A DNA stretch of 39,680 nt. Source: a virus (taxonomy: Duplodnaviria > Caudoviricetes). Made by a program: the position numbers and the translations under genes. The stretch lies in the IMG/VR virus record IMGVR_UViG_3300036940_000698, positions 1 through 39,680 of that record. One strand, given 5' to 3'. The notes beneath the pieces are model-generated. The model was given only the letters and a program-made list of their open reading frames with translations, ran no database searches and was not told where the DNA came from. This document shows, piece after piece, positions 1-38,934 of the stretch; positions within the stretch are counted from its first letter, which is position 1; every line of letters begins with the position of its first letter.

Positions 1-1095
1 CTATGCCTCATCTTCCTGCCGGGCCGGACGGATTTCGGACGGTTTGCCGAGGTCTATGGGCCCCAAATTCACGGCTTGCAGGGCCGTGGCGACGTGCTCC
101 TTGGTAACGTGGGTGTAGATGTCCGCCGTGTGGGTTTGGGCGTGTCCGAGAAGGTCCGCAATGGTCTTGGCGCCATATCCTCCCATGGCCAGGAGCGCCC
201 CGGTCGTGTGGCGCAAAGAGTGCAGGTGGAGGTGTCCATACCCCGCCTCATTGAGGCTGTCCTTGATCTTGTGCGTGATGGTGTCCGGGTGCGCCCATCG
301 ACGGAATACGCGCTTGCTCTCTTCCAGGTCCATTGATTTTAGGACGGCCTTGAACATTGGGTGCATGGGCACCCACTCCACGACGAGGCGGCGTTTCTTT
401 TTGCGCTCCACGCGGATCAGGCTTCGGGAAAAGTCGATATCGCGCGGATACTCCAGGGCCAGGAGTTCCGTCCTGCGCAGCCCTGAGTGGATGTAGGCCA
501 CGGCCATCCGGCGCACGTCGATGTCCTTGATCTTGCGGATGTAGTCGGCGGCCTGGGCCGCGTCGAGGAAACCGGGCTCGGTGTCTCCTCCGCCGATCTG
601 CTTCACGCCCTTGAGCGGGTTGGTGCGCAGATATTCCCATTCAACGGCCTTGTTCATCACGGCCTTGGCGTGGCGGATGTAACAATTGATCGTGGAGGGT
701 TTGCGGCCTTGGGCCAGGAGGGCGCGCGTCATTTCGTCGATGACCTTTTGCCCGATGCGGTCCAGGAGCGTGGATTTCCCGCCGTACTGCTCCAGCTTGT
801 CCAGGGCCTTCCGGTTGCCCGCATAGGTATGCTTATTCTGTACCTCGATGGCCCACGCCAGGTATTCGGCCTTGAATTGCCCGATGGAGACCGTTGTCTG
901 GCCTTTGATGTGGGCCAGTTTACCGGCCAGCCATTGCTCCCTGATAGCCGTGAATACCCGTTTTGCCTCCTTGCCGTCCGTGACGGTCCGGCCACAGAAC
1001 TTTTTCAGGCTGTGGCGCTTCCCGTTGATCCAGATGACATAGGCCCCGGTGTCTGGGCGCTTGGACAATTTCATACGGTCCGAATAGCCTACCAC
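1..1095 (-). CDS. int: Tyrosine recombinase / phage integrase (start may be 1074)
   Basis: Catalytic motifs GLRRTE, HSLRH, LGH, IYTH; SAM-like core domain KPSTINCYIRHAKAVMNKAVEW. Confidence 0.95.
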   Translation of the reverse strand: MVGYSDRMKLSKRPDTGAYVIWINGKRHSLKKFCGRTVTDGKEAKRVFTAIREQWLAGKLAHIKGQTTVSIGQFKAEYLAWAIEVQNKHTYAGNRKALDKLEQYGGKSTLLDRIGQKVIDEMTRALLAQGRKPSTINCYIRHAKAVMNKAVEWEYLRTNPLKGVKQIGGGDTEPGFLDAAQAADYIRKIKDIDVRRMAVAYIHSGLRRTELLALEYPRDIDFSRSLIRVERKKKRRLVVEWVPMHPMFKAVLKSMDLEESKRVFRRWAHPDTITHKIKDSLNEAGYGHLHLHSLRHTTGALLAMGGYGAKTIADLLGHAQTHTADIYTHVTKEHVATALQAVNLGPIDLGKPSEIRPARQEDEA

Positions 1096-2402: not shown

Positions 2403-2618
2403 TCAATGACGTTTTTTGTACTGCCCACAGAACTCACGCGGGTCCTCGAACATGTAGCACCATGCCCCGTGGCTCTCAGGTTCCCCGCAGTATTTCCACT
2501 GACAGTTATTGCAGTGGGAATATGGGGCATCGCTCTTTCGGACGGACTTCTTGAGCGCCTCCATAAACGTGGGCCACGGACCGGATTCAAGTTCCTCAAG
2601 AGTCGGTGTCTTACTCAT
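2403..2618 (-). CDS. 71-aa protein with DsrA-like N-terminus and Cys-rich C-terminus
   Basis: MSKTPTLEELESGPWPTFMEALKK...CNNC...C...CYMF...CGQY; GAGGT RBS; start overlaps upstream stop. Confidence 0.75.
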   Translation of the reverse strand: MSKTPTLEELESGPWPTFMEALKKSVRKSDAPYSHCNNCQWKYCGEPESHGAWCYMFEDPREFCGQYKKRH

Positions 2619-2823
2619 CGTCCACCTCGGAATTATTCGTTGATTCCACCAGCAGGGAGAGCGAAAGCGTTTGCCAGTGGGAACTGTCTCCACCCTCCAG
2701 ATATTTGCTCACTTCCAGGGGGATCAGTTCATCGGGGACATCCACGATCATCGACTTGCGTTCCGTGTCGCCACCGATGTTTGCCGCTGCACCGAAATCG
2801 GATATGGTAAATACGATCTTCAT
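2611..2823 (-). CDS. Hypothetical protein
   Basis: 70-aa ORF with AAGGA RBS, coupled to downstream ORF. Confidence 0.65.
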   Translation of the reverse strand: MKIVFTISDFGAAANIGGDTERKSMIVDVPDELIPLEVSKYLEGGDSSHWQTLSLSLLVESTNNSEVDDE

Positions 2824-2944
2824 TCTTCATCCTTGAAGATTGTATTCTCAGTTATTCGGAAATTCCTAATAGGTGTCGCTGATTGCTGAGTTCCTGGATC
2901 ATCCCGTGCGGCTGCACGACATGATCCGATGATTCCCTATTGGT

Positions 2945-3229
2945 TTAGATTTTTGCGGCTTGATCGTAGAGCGCCATTGCTCTGCGCCTGAGATTGTTTC
3001 TGCCTCCTCCGACCGCGATAGCTCGTTTTATATTGCCCTCATGATTGAGCCGTCTTGCCCTTCCGTTGAGCCTGTGTGATGCGAACATGTAGCGGTAGGC
3101 TTTTTCAAGAAGCAGAGTCCGTTGCGCGTATTTAACGGCCATGTCTTCCAGTGCCGTCAGGGTACGCACCTCCGCACCATAGGTGTAACTGGCAATCATC
3201 CTTTGTGCGTTCTTTCGTAAATCACTCAT
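2945..3229 (-). CDS. Hypothetical basic protein
   Basis: MSDLRKN start with GAGG RBS. Confidence 0.6.
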   Translation of the reverse strand: MSDLRKNAQRMIASYTYGAEVRTLTALEDMAVKYAQRTLLLEKAYRYMFASHRLNGRARRLNHEGNIKRAIAVGGGRNNLRRRAMALYDQAAKI

Positions 3230-3239
3230 GGTACGCCTC

Positions 3240-3548
3240 TTACAGATTCTCGGACAATATCCGCTTGAGCGGGACACAGGCCATTCCGAGACGAGATCCG
3301 ATGTTGGCTTCCATTTGCGCACCTTTGGAGTCGCTCCAACCAGGGAGCAGACAGACCATGTCGCACTCACAGACTTGGGGGATAGCCAGGCGCATGAAGT
3401 TTTCCCAGGTCGGCGGATCGGGGTGCTCGTTCCTGGCCGGGTTAACGACCTCAAACCCCAGGGCGGCAAGCTCATCTTCGGCTGCATGGAACGCCGGGTA
3501 GTTGTTTTCAGGAAGGCCCGTCATGGGGCCGGAGATGTAGACCTTCAT
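3240..3548 (-). CDS. DUF4406 family protein (nucleoside 2-deoxyribosyltransferase-like fold)
   Basis: MKVYISGPMTGLPENNYPAF...VVNPA...CDMVCLLPGWSDSKGAQME signature. Confidence 0.85.
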   Translation of the reverse strand: MKVYISGPMTGLPENNYPAFHAAEDELAALGFEVVNPARNEHPDPPTWENFMRLAIPQVCECDMVCLLPGWSDSKGAQMEANIGSRLGMACVPLKRILSENL

Positions 3549-3573
3549 TCTTCCATCCTTATGCTGAGAACGT

Positions 3574-5495: not shown

Positions 5496-6554
5496 TTACT
5501 TTTCCTCAGAGAATTTTGAATAGGTTTGCCGTGCGTGCGCCTGGATCAAGCTGCCGAAGAAATAGGTGCAGTGCGGGACTTGCCCGTTACCGATGCACTT
5601 GAGTCGGTCCACCCGATGGGCAACCCCATGAGCCACTCGACCCAATCCGGGTTCAGTTGCCCACCAGGCTTTTCCCCATCGCGCAGGAGATGCCCCGGTA
5701 CACTGTCCCGCCCTCGCAGCGAGGGCGGCAAAGTCGAGTTCTTCGCGTCCTGGGCGCAGGGTGTCGGGAAAATTTGTACTGCCGCGCTGAGAGGAAGACC
5801 GCCCTGCGCATACCGCTTCGACCTCATGGAAGTGTCCCGCGTTGGAGTTGGCCAGAGTTTTTCCTTCGAGCTCCGCCCCTTCCTGAACCCCATCCCGCTC
5901 CACTCGTCGCGGTCCTCTATCTTCTCCTTGAGCATCAACAGCGATCCGTCGTTGGTAAATCCCCTTACGTCCGGTGTCGGCCACAGCCTTTCGCGCACAG
6001 CCCATCCCAATTTGTTCGGCTTGGTTCGACCGTCTGTCGCCTCCCAAGACATGTCGTAGGTGCCTATCGTTGCTTGAGGCGTAGGCCACGATCCAGATTC
6101 GATCTCGTTTGTGGGGAGCTCCAAGGGCGGAAGCCGGGACACAATGCCATTCCGCATCGTACCCGAGCGAGGCAAGGTCGGAGAGGACAACTCCAAGCCC
6201 TCTAGTAACGAGGGCCGGGCTGTTTTCAATGAGTGCGTATCGGGGTCGTATTTCAGCAATGGCTCTAGCATATTCAGTCCACAGTCCACTTCTCGCTCCT
6301 TCTAGTCCTGCGCCTTTCCCGGCGACCGAAATATCTTGGCAAGGGAATCCGCCGGCCAGCATGTCTACCGGCTCGACTTGGGTGAAATCCACCTCGCGGA
6401 TGTCCTCGTAGATCGGCTTGCCCGGCCAGCGCAGGGCGAGGATTTTGCGGGCGTATGGGGCGACTTCGCAAAACCACGCATGCTCAAATCCGGCCCATTC
6501 AAGGCCGAGGTCGCCGCATCCGGCTCCAGAAAAAAGGCTGCCTACTTTCATCAT
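5496..6554 (-). CDS. dcm: C5-cytosine DNA methyltransferase, alpha polypeptide
   Basis: Motif I SLFSGAG, IV GFPCQDIS, VI IENS, VIII HKRDRIW, X LKCIGNGQVP. Confidence 0.92.
   Translation of the reverse strand: MMKVGSLFSGAGCGDLGLEWAGFEHAWFCEVAPYARKILALRWPGKPIYEDIREVDFTQVEPVDMLAGGFPCQDISVAGKGAGLEGARSGLWTEYARAIAEIRPRYALIENSPALVTRGLGVVLSDLASLGYDAEWHCVPASALGAPHKRDRIWIVAYASSNDRHLRHVLGGDRRSNQAEQIGMGCARKAVADTGRKGIYQRRIAVDAQGEDRGPRRVERDGVQEGAELEGKTLANSNAGHFHEVEAVCAGRSSSQRGSTNFPDTLRPGREELDFAALAARAGQCTGASPARWGKAWWATEPGLGRVAHGVAHRVDRLKCIGNGQVPHCTYFFGSLIQAHARQTYSKFSEEK
5546..6271 (-). CDS. Nested alternative-frame beta polypeptide of the C5 methyltransferase
   Basis: Same-strand nested ORF with 4 (W/F)PTP repeats and motif IX-like LNPDWVEWLMGLPIGWT, which the alpha frame lacks. 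Confidence 0.7.
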   Translation of the reverse strand: MLEPLLKYDPDTHSLKTARPSLLEGLELSSPTLPRSGTMRNGIVSRLPPLELPTNEIESGSWPTPQATIGTYDMSWEATDGRTKPNKLGWAVRERLWPTPDVRGFTNDGSLLMLKEKIEDRDEWSGMGFRKGRSSKEKLWPTPTRDTSMRSKRYAQGGLPLSAAVQIFPTPCAQDAKNSTLPPSLRGRDSVPGHLLRDGEKPGGQLNPDWVEWLMGLPIGWTDSSASVTGKSRTAPISSAA

Positions 6555-11842: not shown

Positions 11843-11852
11843 GGATGTCCTC

Positions 11853-12410
11853 CTAATAATTGTCGACAATAGCCAGCAGCCAATCGCGTTGAACTTCCCA
11901 AGCGGCATCCCGGGCGGCGGTCCAAGCGGCGGCCCGGGCGGCGGCCCAAGCGGCATCCCGGGCGGCGGCCCAAGCGGCGGCCCGGGCGGCGGCCCGGGCG
12001 GCGGCCCAAGCGGCATCCCGGGCGGCGGCCCAAGCGGCGGCCCGGGCGGCGGCCCGGGCGGCGGCCCAAGCGGCATCCCGGGCGGCGGCCCAAGCGGCGG
12101 CCCGGGCGGCGTCATCTACTTCGCCATAAGCACGGAGATGAGCCATCTTGACAGCGTCGATGCTGCGCTGATCTTCCATCAGATGCAGCACCTCTTGTGC
12201 GCAGGCCACGGCGAATAGACGCGCCGGGGTTTGGTCATCCAAACAACGCAGCGCCCAAATTGCGTCATCGAGTCCGTTGGATTCGACTATTGTGCGGAAC
12301 GGGAAAACTTCATTGTCGGCTTTGGTCTTGCCTAAATGTTTGAGCAGATTCCGCCATCCCTCTTCGCACGGCCCGTGCTCACGTATTTGGCTCAAGGTGA
12401 TAGTAATCAT
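11853..12410 (-). CDS. Phage protein with Ala-rich AAW/AARD repeats
   Basis: MITITLSQIREHGPCEEGW...LDDAIWALR...RLFAVACA followed by (AARAAAWAAARDAAW)n. Confidence 0.8.
   Translation of the reverse strand: MITITLSQIREHGPCEEGWRNLLKHLGKTKADNEVFPFRTIVESNGLDDAIWALRCLDDQTPARLFAVACAQEVLHLMEDQRSIDAVKMAHLRAYGEVDDAARAAAWAAARDAAWAAARAAARAAAWAAARDAAWAAARAAARAAAWAAARDAAWAAARAAAWTAARDAAWEVQRDWLLAIVDNY
11897..12111. repeat. 12-bp tandem repeat with a 60-bp higher-order unit
   Basis: Lines 11941 and 12001 are identical and 12061-12111 repeats the first 51 nt. Confidence 0.95.
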
Positions 12411-12911: not shown

Positions 12912-12940
12912 AAGCTAGGCGATTTTCGGCTATCCGTCAA
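12912..12940 (-). promoter_or_regulatory. Leftward early promoter PL
   Basis: TTGACG-17-TAGCTT on the minus strand with an operator in the spacer. Confidence 0.7.
12916..12932. promoter_or_regulatory. Operator OL1
   Basis: TAGGCGATTTTCGGCTA, imperfect palindrome present in three copies. Confidence 0.75.
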
Positions 12941-12948
12941 CACAAAAA

Positions 12949-12965
12949 TAGACGAATTTCGCCTA
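12949..12965. promoter_or_regulatory. Operator OL2
   Basis: TAGACGAATTTCGCCTA. Confidence 0.75.
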
Positions 12966-13520: not shown

Positions 13521-13549
13521 TTGACTGGTAGCCGAATTTCGCCTACTTT
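13521..13549 (+). promoter_or_regulatory. Rightward early promoter PR with operator OR (13529-13545)
   Basis: TTGACT-17-TACTTT; TAGCCGAATTTCGCCTA occupies the spacer. Confidence 0.75.
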
Positions 13550-26230: not shown

Positions 26231-27199
26231 ATGGCTGATGTCGTCACCAAGACCGTCACCACCAACTATGACAAGTCCATCCCGGAAGAGGTGGACTCCC
26301 TGATCACCAACGTGGCCCCGACCGACACCCCGTTCCTGACCTCCATCGGTCAGGGCGCGAAGGTCAAGACCCTGCATCCCGAGTGGCTGGAAGATACTCT
26401 GGGCGATGCCGGTGAAAACGCCCACGTCGAGGGTGCGGACTCCAGCGCCGCGGCGATCACCCCGCCCGCCCTGCTGGACAACCGCGTCCAGCGCCTGGAA
26501 AAGGCGTTCATGATCTCCGAGGACCTGGAAAAGACCGACAAGCACGGGCGTAAGTCCGAAATCAAGTACCAGTCCGGCCTCAAGACCAAGGAACTGGCCC
26601 GCGACCTGGAATGGAACCTGATCAACCAGACCAAGCAGGCCGGGACCACGACCCTGCCCGCCAAGATGGACGGCGTGATCAACTACGCGGGCACCGGCAA
26701 CACCTATGATTTCGACGCCACCCCGGCAGCCACCAACCACATTACCGAGGAAATCCTGAACGACGTTCTTCAGTCGATGTGGGAGCAGGGTGCGGACCCG
26801 GATTGTGTCTTGGCCCCGCCCGCCCAGAAGCGGAAAATTTCCGCTTTCACTCAGGGCGGACGCCTGACCATCAACTCCAATGCCTCGGAAAAGGCTCTGC
26901 GCATGACTGTGCGCATCCTCGAAACCGACTTCGGCATCGTGGCCGTTCTGCCCGAGCGGTTCATCGCCCCGAGCGTGGACACCACGCCGGACCCGGACGT
27001 CTACTACGACAAGCTGGTGGTCTACGAGAAGGGCCGCCTGGCATGCGCCACCTTCCGCCCGCTCAAGCGCGAGAAGCTGGCCAAGACTGGCGACGCCGAA
27101 AAGTTCCGGATGACCATGTCCAAGATGCTGAAGGTGCGCTCCAAGAAGTGCGTCGGCACCATCACCAACCTGACCCGCGTCCAGCCCGAGGCCGCGTAG
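26231..27199 (+). CDS. Major capsid protein (DUF5309/SU10-like)
   Basis: ITNVAPTDTPFLTSIG...HPEWLEDTL...EGAD...KELARDLE; strong codon bias. Confidence 0.9.
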   Translation: MADVVTKTVTTNYDKSIPEEVDSLITNVAPTDTPFLTSIGQGAKVKTLHPEWLEDTLGDAGENAHVEGADSSAAAITPPALLDNRVQRLEKAFMISEDLEKTDKHGRKSEIKYQSGLKTKELARDLEWNLINQTKQAGTTTLPAKMDGVINYAGTGNTYDFDATPAATNHITEEILNDVLQSMWEQGADPDCVLAPPAQKRKISAFTQGGRLTINSNASEKALRMTVRILETDFGIVAVLPERFIAPSVDTTPDPDVYYDKLVVYEKGRLACATFRPLKREKLAKTGDAEKFRMTMSKMLKVRSKKCVGTITNLTRVQPEAA

Positions 27200-35934: not shown

Positions 35935-36266
35935 TGGGATATGCGATACGTATTGACGGTGTTTATGGCTGGCGGGCCGTCCGGTCTGCCAATGATTGTC
36001 GAGGCAACGAGACATATAGCAAAGTCAAGCCCGGCCCCTATGAGCCTACCGACGAGGACCTGGCCGAGGCCGTTCGGGCCGAGCGGGACCGACTTCTCGC
36101 AAACACCGACTGGACGCAACTTACTGATGCCCCAATGAGCGACGATGAACGTGAGGCATGGGCCGTCTATCGGCAGGCGTTGCGGGATGTTCCGCAGCAG
36201 GGAGGATTCCCGGATGCGGTCGAGTGGCCTGAAACTCCGTTGTCTGGAGGGAAAACTAATGCCTGA
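35934..36266 (+). CDS. Tail fibre assembly chaperone
   Basis: RAERDRLLANTDWTQLTDAP...WAVYRQALRDVPQQGGFPDAVEWP. Confidence 0.9.
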   Translation: MGYAIRIDGVYGWRAVRSANDCRGNETYSKVKPGPYEPTDEDLAEAVRAERDRLLANTDWTQLTDAPMSDDEREAWAVYRQALRDVPQQGGFPDAVEWPETPLSGGKTNA

Positions 36267-38934
36267 GATACGGCAACAGCGACAGGCTGAATTCGTGTCC
36301 GAGAACGTGGGTGACACCAAAGCGTCTATCTTGATTGGTGGGCGCGATGCCTCGGTGGGGCCGGTTGCCGCGCAGAACGTCAACATGTCCTGGACGTTTG
36401 GTAGCCAGCGCGATGAATTTTGGATCAATGTCAACCGCCCGGACGCTGAAGCAGACCAGGGGGAGATATTGGCGGATGGCGTGCTGGCGCTTCCCAGCGG
36501 TGACATCTTCCATTTCGATGAGAGTGGGCGGCTGAAATGGGATATCCAATTTGATGAGCACCCCAGCATTTACGCCTGGACGTTCCTCATCACGGATTCC
36601 GGCAACATCAGCTACCACTACCAGCCAGCGCTGACCGATGAGGAAGTGGAGGCCGGTGCCCGCCGCCCAACCGAGGTTGTGGGCTCGTATGCCGTTTACG
36701 GAGACAGACGCGACGGCGAGTATAAAACCGGCAAGCTCATGCACATCCCGGCCCCTCTCATCACCGATGCGAGCGGTGATGAGACATACGGCACCCTCGA
36801 TATCACCGATGGCGTGATGACGGTGTCTATCGACAGGGAGTGGATGGACAACGCGACGTATCCGGTCATTCTCGACCCGACGTTTGGGTATACGACACAG
36901 GGCGCGTCCTCGGCAGTCATCAACGTTCCGTATCGAGCGTTGAGTACGGTTGACAGCGTCGTTGCCACGAGTGGCGCAACCGTGACCGCCGTCCACGCTT
37001 ATATGTTCTCGTATGACGGCACGCCGCCGTCAGTTTGGCTAGGCGTATTTGATGAGACAGACGGCTATTCTAGGCTGCTGCAAGCCTCCGTCCCTGTCCA
37101 GGGAAGCACCCCGGCGCTGTGCACTACGGACGGGCTGTCCGTTGAAATGACTGCCGATCACACGTATGTCATGGCGTTTGGCCCCCGGAACAGCGCAAAC
37201 ATGATGTACGACACGTACGGGTCAAATGCCAGTAAGCGCATCACCACTTTTGCGGACCCGATTGTGGACGATTATCCGGGAGCGCTATTCTCAACGAACC
37301 GCTGGTCTATGTACACCACGTACGAGGCCAGCGCCACCGACACGGTGGATGTCGATGAGCCGGAGGATTACACGGTCTGGCAGCGTCGGAGTGGGGAGAG
37401 GTCTGTCACCCTGAGCGGGACGTATACCGGCACCCCCACGGCCATAGAGGCCCGCATTGTCGCACATGGGACCGACACCCCGGTATCTGGGTTGGACTGG
37501 CAGACAGTTGATGCCGCGCCGTCTGGTGGAACGTGGTCCGGTTCGCTGACCCTGCCTGCCGGTGGATGGTATAACGTCGATGTCCGTTTTTCCAATGACC
37601 CCGGCATCACGTACACGGGGCTGAATCGGTTCGGAGTGGGGGACGTGTTCATCATTTATGGGCAGAGCCAGCACGCTCAATTGTGGACAACCGCATTGAC
37701 GGCACCGACGCCGAACGCTCTTTCGTCTCTGGTGGTCACGGAAACTGGAACGCTCGGACTGCCCCCAGCGAACATGACTATTTCGAATTTCCTCAACTCG
37801 GTCATTGGCGAAACGGGGTTGCCGACAATGGTTATAGGCGCGGCGCGTCCGAACAAGCACGTTGCCGAACTGAGCCAGGGGCAGGGACCATATAACGACT
37901 TAATCACCTACGCCACGGCATACGACGCGCTGGCGATGTTCTACAACCAGGGTACCAGCGACGTGTGGAGCGGAACCGGGTACTCGACGTATAAAGCCGC
38001 GCTCGAAACGCTGTTGAGCGCCCTCGCAACGGACCTCGCAGGTGTCTTGAGCGGGCCGTGCACCTTCGGCCTGTCCATCCTGGCGAACACGACAACCGAC
38101 CTCAGTGATACCAAGATAGACGATATCAGACGGGCACACATCGACATTTTGAACGCTGACGGGGCGCTGGTGTGGACAGGGACAAACCAGGATCTGGAAT
38201 TGATTGATGGTACCCACCACACCGCAGCCGGATACGCCCGGCTGTGTGAGCGCCTCGCCCAGGCCGCGCTCAAGATTCTCGGCATTTCGGCCTATGACGC
38301 GCGCGGCCCGGTGTTGTCAGGCGTGCAGTATGACACCACGGCAAAGCAGATCGTTTTGGATTACGCCATGAACGGCGGTACGGCCCTGGCCGTGGACAGC
38401 GGCGACCCGGCGGCTATCGAAATATTCGGAAACGGGGTGGCCGCCGCCCCGGACTCGTGGTCCGTTTCCGGCACGCAGATAGTTGCGCAATACACCACGC
38501 TTCCGGACCTGCCGATCACCCTCAGGGTCGCCTATGGATATTCGGCGGCTGGACAATACGATCCGTGGGTCAACACACGCGACAATTTAACCGCTTACAC
38601 CACGGAAGGCCTGCCCATACCCCCGACGAGTGGAAGCGTGACCGCGACGGAGGTAAACTCCGAGGTCATCATCGACCTGCCCATCGTTGTGGGCCTGGTA
38701 TCATCCGTGTCCGTGGATTTGGAAAAAGTCGTGGAGATGGAGATAAGCGTTTCTGGCGAGGCGGGCGCTGAGGTCGTGCTCGAAAAAGTCGTGGAACTCC
38801 CGGTGGCCGCGTCCCTGGTGGCCACCGTGGAGATAAATCTACAGACAGCAGATGAGGTGAACATAAACAGGCGTGTCGTACTCCCTGCCACAGCATACCG
38901 GCACATTATCATCAACGCTAAAATAGGAGATTGA
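36259..38934 (+). CDS. Large multidomain protein with SGNH/sialate O-acetylesterase-like domain
   Basis: IYGQSQ, YNQGTSD, DGTHH catalytic blocks; GGAGG RBS. Confidence 0.75.
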   Translation: MPEIRQQRQAEFVSENVGDTKASILIGGRDASVGPVAAQNVNMSWTFGSQRDEFWINVNRPDAEADQGEILADGVLALPSGDIFHFDESGRLKWDIQFDEHPSIYAWTFLITDSGNISYHYQPALTDEEVEAGARRPTEVVGSYAVYGDRRDGEYKTGKLMHIPAPLITDASGDETYGTLDITDGVMTVSIDREWMDNATYPVILDPTFGYTTQGASSAVINVPYRALSTVDSVVATSGATVTAVHAYMFSYDGTPPSVWLGVFDETDGYSRLLQASVPVQGSTPALCTTDGLSVEMTADHTYVMAFGPRNSANMMYDTYGSNASKRITTFADPIVDDYPGALFSTNRWSMYTTYEASATDTVDVDEPEDYTVWQRRSGERSVTLSGTYTGTPTAIEARIVAHGTDTPVSGLDWQTVDAAPSGGTWSGSLTLPAGGWYNVDVRFSNDPGITYTGLNRFGVGDVFIIYGQSQHAQLWTTALTAPTPNALSSLVVTETGTLGLPPANMTISNFLNSVIGETGLPTMVIGAARPNKHVAELSQGQGPYNDLITYATAYDALAMFYNQGTSDVWSGTGYSTYKAALETLLSALATDLAGVLSGPCTFGLSILANTTTDLSDTKIDDIRRAHIDILNADGALVWTGTNQDLELIDGTHHTAAGYARLCERLAQAALKILGISAYDARGPVLSGVQYDTTAKQIVLDYAMNGGTALAVDSGDPAAIEIFGNGVAAAPDSWSVSGTQIVAQYTTLPDLPITLRVAYGYSAAGQYDPWVNTRDNLTAYTTEGLPIPPTSGSVTATEVNSEVIIDLPIVVGLVSSVSVDLEKVVEMEISVSGEAGAEVVLEKVVELPVAASLVATVEINLQTADEVNINRRVVLPATAYRHIIINAKIGD

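Follow-up and report, generated by a model that had tools for sequence, protein, structure and literature searches.

The enzyme DsrAB stands at the centre of sulfate respiration, and a first-pass annotation of the virus genome considered here proposed that one of its early genes, only 71 codons long, begins with the N-terminal arm of the DsrA subunit, lacks every other part of dsrA, and may act on the enzyme of the host as a decoy or docking module. The locus raises the question of whether so short a resemblance reflects homology and, if it does, what a phage could do with some 25 residues of a respiratory enzyme.

The phage, the gene and its likeness to DsrA

The window, by which we mean the whole stretch of DNA that was analysed, is an entire virus record of 39.7 kb. 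Its minus strand encodes an integrase, an excisionase-like HTH protein, RecT, YqaJ and methyltransferases, and its plus strand carries replication, terminase, SU10 portal and capsid genes; the phage is temperate. The tyrosine integrase at the end of the early operon (1..1095, minus strand) belongs to a 90% cluster that includes a Desulfovibrio caledoniensis integrase, and the SU10-type major capsid protein (26231..27199, plus strand), our second clue to the host, belongs to one that includes Pseudodesulfovibrio proteins. From these two clusters we infer a sulfate reducer of the Desulfovibrionaceae as the likely host, which, judging from the same kin, would carry dsr genes. The D. caledoniensis and P. 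pelocollis loci have only the integrase region in common with the window. The sequencing runs containing this DNA are oil-field metagenomes, and two of the seven hold at least half of its words, both possibly its source.

Other features of the window include an array of a 12-nt tandem repeat (16 overlapping copies, 11849-12147) within the minus-strand operon, and three related 17-nt near-palindromes at 12916-12965 and 13529-13545, between the divergent operons, which are likely repressor operators. An ORF for a C5 methyltransferase (5496-6554) fully overlaps a 247-aa ORF (5546-6289) on the same strand in a different frame, and a 929-aa tail protein (36145-38934) contains a sialic-acid acetylesterase-like (SASA) domain.

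The gene in question, P0002, occupies 2403..2618 on the minus strand, among phage genes of the leftward early operon and about 1.3 kb ahead of the integrase, and it is also called as a gene on four contigs, the longest of 203 kb. Its description as a well-initiated early ORF of 71 amino acids was borne out: it reads from 2618 to 2403 and is led by a ribosome-binding site (2622..2628, minus strand) located within the 3' end of the upstream ORF, with a GAGG element at 2628-2625, 6 nt upstream of the ATG. The ATG overlaps the stop codon of that upstream 70-aa ORF (2611-2823), and the two are probably coupled in translation. The GC content at third codon positions is 0.63 in the arm, 0.64 in the tail and 0.63 in the upstream neighbour. 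A promoter scan at the gene gave nothing above chance, no boundary repeat was found flanking it, and the listed runs containing this DNA include no RNA dataset.

P0002 and three neighbours, among them a DUF4406 gene, make up an exchangeable block at 2403..3559 (minus strand), delimited by joints and loose ends in two of the runs. In run X1 a contig of lower depth (11.6 against about 60) joins across 2403-3559, and in run X3 loose ends are found at 2402 and 3560. There appears to be a co-occurring sister phage with other DNA at 2403-3559, visible through these joints only, and the DNA that replaces the block in it may have a diverged arm inside. Lower-depth contigs of run X1 replace or skip two blocks of the window, 2403-3559 and 1561-2218; the 23-nt pieces 2621-2643 and 2849-2871 are retained in the replacing contig, which suggests exchange at gene boundaries.

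The resemblance to DsrA is confined to the first residues of P0002. In a phmmer search of 177,635 PDB sequences the top five matches were DsrA without exception and covered no more than query residues 1-29; the best of them, 3mm5_A, aligns residues 1-27 with residues 1-27 (E=1.5e-4), and 2v4j_A was matched with E=0.005. The motif T-P-x-L-x-x-L-E-x-G-P-W-P-x-F is present, and the claim of a DsrA signature at the matching N-terminal position thus stands. In the dsrA profile TIGR02064, residues 7-28 of P0002 correspond to positions 1-22 of 402, with 16 bits against a curated cut-off of 392.85, so the protein does not qualify as a DsrA, a class defined over about 400 positions. A hidden Markov model built from 84 DsrA arms gave P0002 32.6 bits compared with at most 5.4 in the other 712 frames of the window, and in a second comparison 33.5 bits compared with at most 14.2 among 20,000 shuffles; these scores rule out chance resemblance. 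It was also correct that the remainder of dsrA is absent: across the 713 window frames neither a model of the core of DsrA (starting at residue 32; best E 1.9) nor one of DsrB (best E 0.7) found a match. The window arm is among the most diverged, with 17 of 24 residues identical to the closest DsrA and six residues that do not occur in 116 DsrA arms.

P0002 falls into two parts. The arm module (residues 1-27; 2538..2618, minus strand), to which the PDB and TIGR02064 matches refer, is predicted to form two short helices around G13-P14-W15-P16; the single-chain model is weak (pLDDT 54.9) and places helices at 7-12 and 16-25 with low confidence. The tail (residues 28-71; 2406..2537, minus strand) is the part noticed earlier for its cysteines, and P0002 indeed has cysteines at positions 36, 39, 44, 54 and 64.

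Recurrence of the arm on different carriers

Single-sequence searches with P0002 found no relative other than itself, and atlas searches with P0002 and with its tail gave only leads scoring under 0.9; it took whole-genome searches and an alignment to find relatives. An order-level search of 401 genomes matched 361, nearly all at dsrA, and 31 had two matches. Twelve regions were examined among the 57 matches listed for these 31, and two of them proved to be prophage genes in Desulfovibrionales. The first, L140 in the prophage of genome G369, encodes a 60-aa protein with the arm and a double CxxC tail and lies beside two integrases, a DNA methyltransferase and a tRNA-Val gene. The second, L147 in the prophage of G235 (Pseudodesulfovibrio), encodes 135 residues consisting of the arm, a PHROG 9572 domain and a tail related to that of the window; here the arm stands in frame ahead of a PHROG 9572 gene that retains its own ribosome-binding site and ATG, and the locus adjoins an integrase downstream. 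Most of the other second matches were duplicated or contig-cut dsrA. Family- and phylum-level searches (401 genomes each, overlapping; best 150 matches each) produced no new case among the eight genomes followed up. Two prophage cases from three overlapping searches of 401 genomes, with the best 150 matches taken at family and phylum level, indicate that the module is rare.

Scans of viral sequences added two IMG/VR contigs, L152 and L153, whose records lack the DsrA core. A further locus, L306, lies in a prophage recorded under the name Desulfoscipio geothermicus, which we take to be a sulfate reducer of the Bacillota; it is a 108-aa ORF without cysteines, with an internal and shorter arm, situated between a DnaB helicase gene and a Holliday resolvase/terminase region. 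Its arm scores 24.0 bits, against 11.2 and 7.7 for two chance matches to the pattern. From 120 listed proteins (145 matches) five without context were chosen by eye: P0025, which is a full-length homologue of P0002 (E=4.6e-11), 43% identical to it and with the arm still joined to the tail, and four weak picks, P0034, P0119, P0134 and P0112, which could be assembly chimeras. The remaining proteins listed were judged to be DsrA fragments, frameshifts or assembly chimeras. A metagenome scan that reached at least 80 loci, 80 of them listed, returned 73 DsrA, five cut or frameshifted DsrA, one locus without the motif and one that was the L152 contig. No match to the arm alone was found in GenBank phages, where only the Lau218 rdsrA was matched, or in PLSDB plasmids.

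The tally is six loci with phage context (the window included), one firm extra protein and four weak ones; of the Desulfovibrionales cases read in context, P0022 has the arm nearest to DsrA. The suggested check for the same fusion in other prophages of sulfate reducers thus turned up the arm in five further phage loci, mostly on unrelated tails, and the relatives keep the motif. The arm is N-terminal in the window, L140, L147, L153 and P0025 and internal in L152 and L306, each arm protein forms a one-member cluster, and a tblastx comparison of the window with L140, L147, L152 and L153 detected no common stretch beyond the integrase.

Three side observations concern the hosts and prophages. In one genome a second host dsrA is split after codon 26 by an IS-like element (L143; G249:C1, about 997,000-999,250), leaving a 40-aa ORF with the arm alone, a host-side look-alike that possibly illustrates one capture route. 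The host dsrC of G369 (G369:C28:7648-7947) is on the contig that also holds the arm-bearing prophage, some 16 kb away from a prophage end, which may be chance, and two integrase-like genes stand in tandem at the end of the G369 prophage (L140:3429-5889).

Tail-to-tail scores indicate that the window's tail is common to P0002, P0025 and P0023 only. In all three the residues C36, C39, C54 and C64 are conserved, together with W53, F57 and E58; the tail model is mostly of low confidence, and the tail may carry one metal (zinc) site. The tail of P0002 matched no Pfam or PHROG family. CxxC occurs in five of the six arm proteins read in context and in 11 of 54 neighbouring small ORFs (Fisher p=0.004), a comparison in which neighbours were chosen by a rough ribosome-binding-site rule (12/55 if the inner start of P0023 is counted) and which is partly biased, as the search queries included cysteine tails. 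A tail-only search, covering lengths 21-86, gave two candidates, which were P0002 and P0025 themselves and not an arm-less tail, and none of 59 viral stretches contained an arm-less tail; P0145 and P0146, considered as tail relatives, are repeat proteins and were judged chance matches. The arm is the constant part of these proteins and the carrier the variable one; the first-pass annotation missed that the arm is a recurring module on mostly unrelated tails in phages of two host phyla.

Conservation of the arm and its possible targets

The arm of the G235 prophage agrees with its own host dsrA in 20 of 25 residues with only four identical codons (third-position identity 0.28), and that of the G369 prophage in 21 of 25 residues with 11 identical codons (0.48); the window arm has 13 identical residues and four identical codons relative to these two host genes. 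Because the G235 arm retains 20 residues with so few common codons, what has been kept in the phage arms is the peptide rather than the DNA. The dsrA genes from distant hosts are equally saturated relative to one another (L151 and L149: 18 of 25 residues, four identical codons), so that the captures could still be recent ones from an unsampled donor. The host dsrA genes L151, L136, L256 and L257 differ by at most two codons in the arm region, and 131 dsrA 5' ends include no close DNA donor (best at most 53/72). Ten phage-type arms match the conserved columns of DsrA at 121 of 130 positions (66 of 70 with the motif columns set aside) and the variable columns at 55 of 110, figures that are inflated to the extent that the arms were found by their likeness to DsrA.

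These data bear on two explanations in which the arm has no target in the host. The arms might be neutral relics, either repeated accidental and decaying captures of the dsrA 5' end or copies that replace an att site. The one-member clusters, the dispensable block, the divergence of the window arm and the many short dsrA-start chimeras in assemblies would agree with this. It is nevertheless improbable: all six arms are in frame within intact small ORFs, each capture comprises the same ~25 residues, conserved columns persist despite saturation of the third codon positions, and the combination of arm and tail has survived in P0002 and P0025 at 43% identity. The att-site version in particular was rejected, given that the genes lie inside phage operons, DNA identity does not exceed 53/72 and the G369 prophage ends at tRNA-Val; hosts G369 and G235 have intact dsrA on other contigs. 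Still less probable, in our estimate, is a leader function, with the 5' end of an abundantly produced host protein co-opted to aid expression, folding or stability of the attached phage protein and no action on the host enzyme. The N-terminal position in five of the proteins, and the in-frame placement in L147 before a gene with its own start signals, are what such a leader would look like, but the arm is internal in L152 and L306, the codons that a translation leader should keep are not kept, and conservation tracks the columns of the DsrA interface.

P0002 was modelled together with D. caledoniensis DsrA, from which residues 1-31 had been cut, and with DsrB and DsrC. The complex scored 0.87 compared with 0.00 for the best of three controls; of 157 solved complexes 116 reach the score mark, and of 215 mismatched pairs two, a calibration that is only roughly applicable here. 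The runs have at least 53% of contacts in common, with partner pLDDT of at least 55. The predicted interface involves P0002 residues 3-7 and 9-26, W15 and P14 being best defined, with contacts to DsrB 68-77, 123-131, 159-170 and 310-312 and DsrA 47-59 and 128-129. The DsrB pocket residues S159, G160, V162, K163, D167, P311 and R312 are invariant in 28 sequences, and the pocket flanks the invariant R71 and follows C151, both of which we take to belong to the catalytic site. A control with DsrB and DsrC but without the DsrA core scored 0.00. Since the native arm had been removed and a like complex is already solved, the model speaks for fit and likeness and not for binding, and the 0.87 may be a pass earned from remembered DsrAB structures. 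In effect the arm and the arm-less DsrAB are like a subunit cut in two whose structure has been solved, and what the model indicates is that the diverged arm still fits. The proposal of a docking module on DsrAB and DsrC finds partial support in this model, which was helped by removal of the native arm: the arm is placed on DsrB and the DsrA core with confident contacts, and DsrC shows none, nor does the P0002 tail, a lack of support that does not speak against either.

Our best reading, which we consider an even call, is that P0002 is the product of an accessory phage gene and a docking or decoy module for the host DsrAB, most plausibly during assembly. The homology, the recurrence on unrelated tails and the conservation of the peptide count in its favour together with the model; the rarity of the module, the divergence of the window arm and the apparent lack of the block in the sister phage count against it. 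The G-P-W-P turn of the arm would sit in the DsrB pocket and against the DsrA core, in the place emptied when the host arm is removed, and P0002 made during infection would compete with the host arm or displace it, with its best chance while the enzyme is still being put together; once the complex is mature, a free copy should lose out to the host arm, which is tethered. The outcome could be sulfite reduction that is dampened or retuned, or a metal-binding tail tethered to DsrAB. We favour dampening, since an intersubunit clamp supplied as a free copy contributes nothing catalytic. According to the accessible part of PMC10229431, terminal extensions of such enzymes presumably serve to reinforce the dimer and to bind partners.

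The sign of the effect is all that separates this docking reading from a helpful one, in which P0002 would be a miniature AMG that stabilises or activates DsrAB in the manner of DsrD. According to the portions of the papers available to us, a small partner can activate DsrAB (PMC8794893) and phages of sulfur oxidisers carry full dsrA (PMC8190135). P0002 has no catalytic, siroheme or cluster part and no likeness to DsrD in Pfam, and we regard the helpful reading as very improbable. That P0002 is not a conventional AMG was rightly anticipated: its 71 residues, 27 of them aligned, are far from a near full-length subunit.

The target of a decoy could also be a host protein other than DsrAB with the ability to recognise the N-terminus of DsrA, for example a maturation factor, a protease adaptor or a defence sensor guarding DsrAB. 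Such a decoy would fit the conservation, rarity and fast turnover typical of accessory counter-defence genes, and it would need no competition with the tethered arm. Two recurrent substitutions unseen in 116 DsrA arms also suit it, namely S to T after W-P (window, L153 and L306) and D to E five positions before the glycine (window, L147 and L306). We know of no host partner that recognises the DsrA N-terminus, and the accessible parts of the literature examined describe none; moreover, the best-kept residues are predicted to be buried against DsrB and hence would be hidden in the mature enzyme. We therefore regard this explanation as unlikely, though less so than the relics or the leader.

Returning to DsrAB as the target, a broader proposal, which we advance tentatively and hold to be somewhat less probable than not, is that a portable DsrAB-targeting tag of ~25 residues, derived from the clamp arm, circulates among phages of sulfate reducers from two phyla on different small metal-binding proteins, and that it throttles or redirects sulfate respiration by interface mimicry and not through an additional enzyme gene.

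Comparison with known systems

The phage module copied from the N-terminal arm of sulfite reductase is real and recurring, apparently undescribed, and has a plausible target. The capture of the arm by a phage of sulfate reducers, as first proposed, agrees with the significant alignment, the sulfate-reducer kin, the motif-keeping relatives and the conservation at the protein level. A module of 25 residues would escape AMG screens that apply cut-offs on length or score. If the arm binds DsrAB, it would be a natural DsrAB-specific peptide ligand and a probe of the N-terminal arm in assembly and activity, a new viral route for shaping the sulfur cycle and, given that the runs with this DNA are oil-field metagenomes, a lead against sulfide souring and corrosion.

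Viruses reuse short host-derived binding elements as interface mimics or decoys, and P0002 likewise reuses such an element, with binding that is predicted only; to our knowledge no viral mimic has been described that targets the interface between subunits in a respiratory enzyme of prokaryotes. Compared with DsrA itself (TIGR02064; PDB 3mm5, 2v4j, 2xsj and 3or1), P0002 aligns through residues 1-27, position for position, with the N-terminal arm, but this stretch amounts to about 6% of the subunit; P0002 lacks the core, the siroheme and the Fe-S sites and has an unrelated cysteine tail, and no dsrB was found in the window. DsrD is also a small protein and, in the accessible text of PMC8794893, is proposed to act on DsrAB away from the active site; it is, however, a host-encoded winged-helix protein whose binding site is stated there to be unknown, whereas P0002 has no family match.

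In the literature accessible to us, subscription papers and supplements aside, we found no description of a phage-borne DsrA arm; the available parts of PMC8146710 and PMC6081815 mention no phage-borne dsrA fragment, and the comparison also took in the accessible part of 10.1101/2021.12.28.474277. Three viral contigs carry two full rdsrA genes in tandem, about 1.35 kb apart (L014/L015, L037/L038 and L052/L053). Close precedents are the sulfur-oxidation genes of phages described in the available part of PMC8190135, namely dsrA, dsrC/tusE and sox, among which the rdsrA and dsrC/tusE of SUP05-type phages (Lau218) are, like P0002, a case of phage-borne sequence derived from dsrA. All 56 of the viral dsrA loci compared continue as DsrA beyond the arm. 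The SUP05-type genes, as far as the same source goes, belong to phages of sulfur oxidisers, encode entire subunits and are thought to add capacity, whereas P0002 and its relatives carry the arm alone, in phages of sulfate reducers and on varied carriers.
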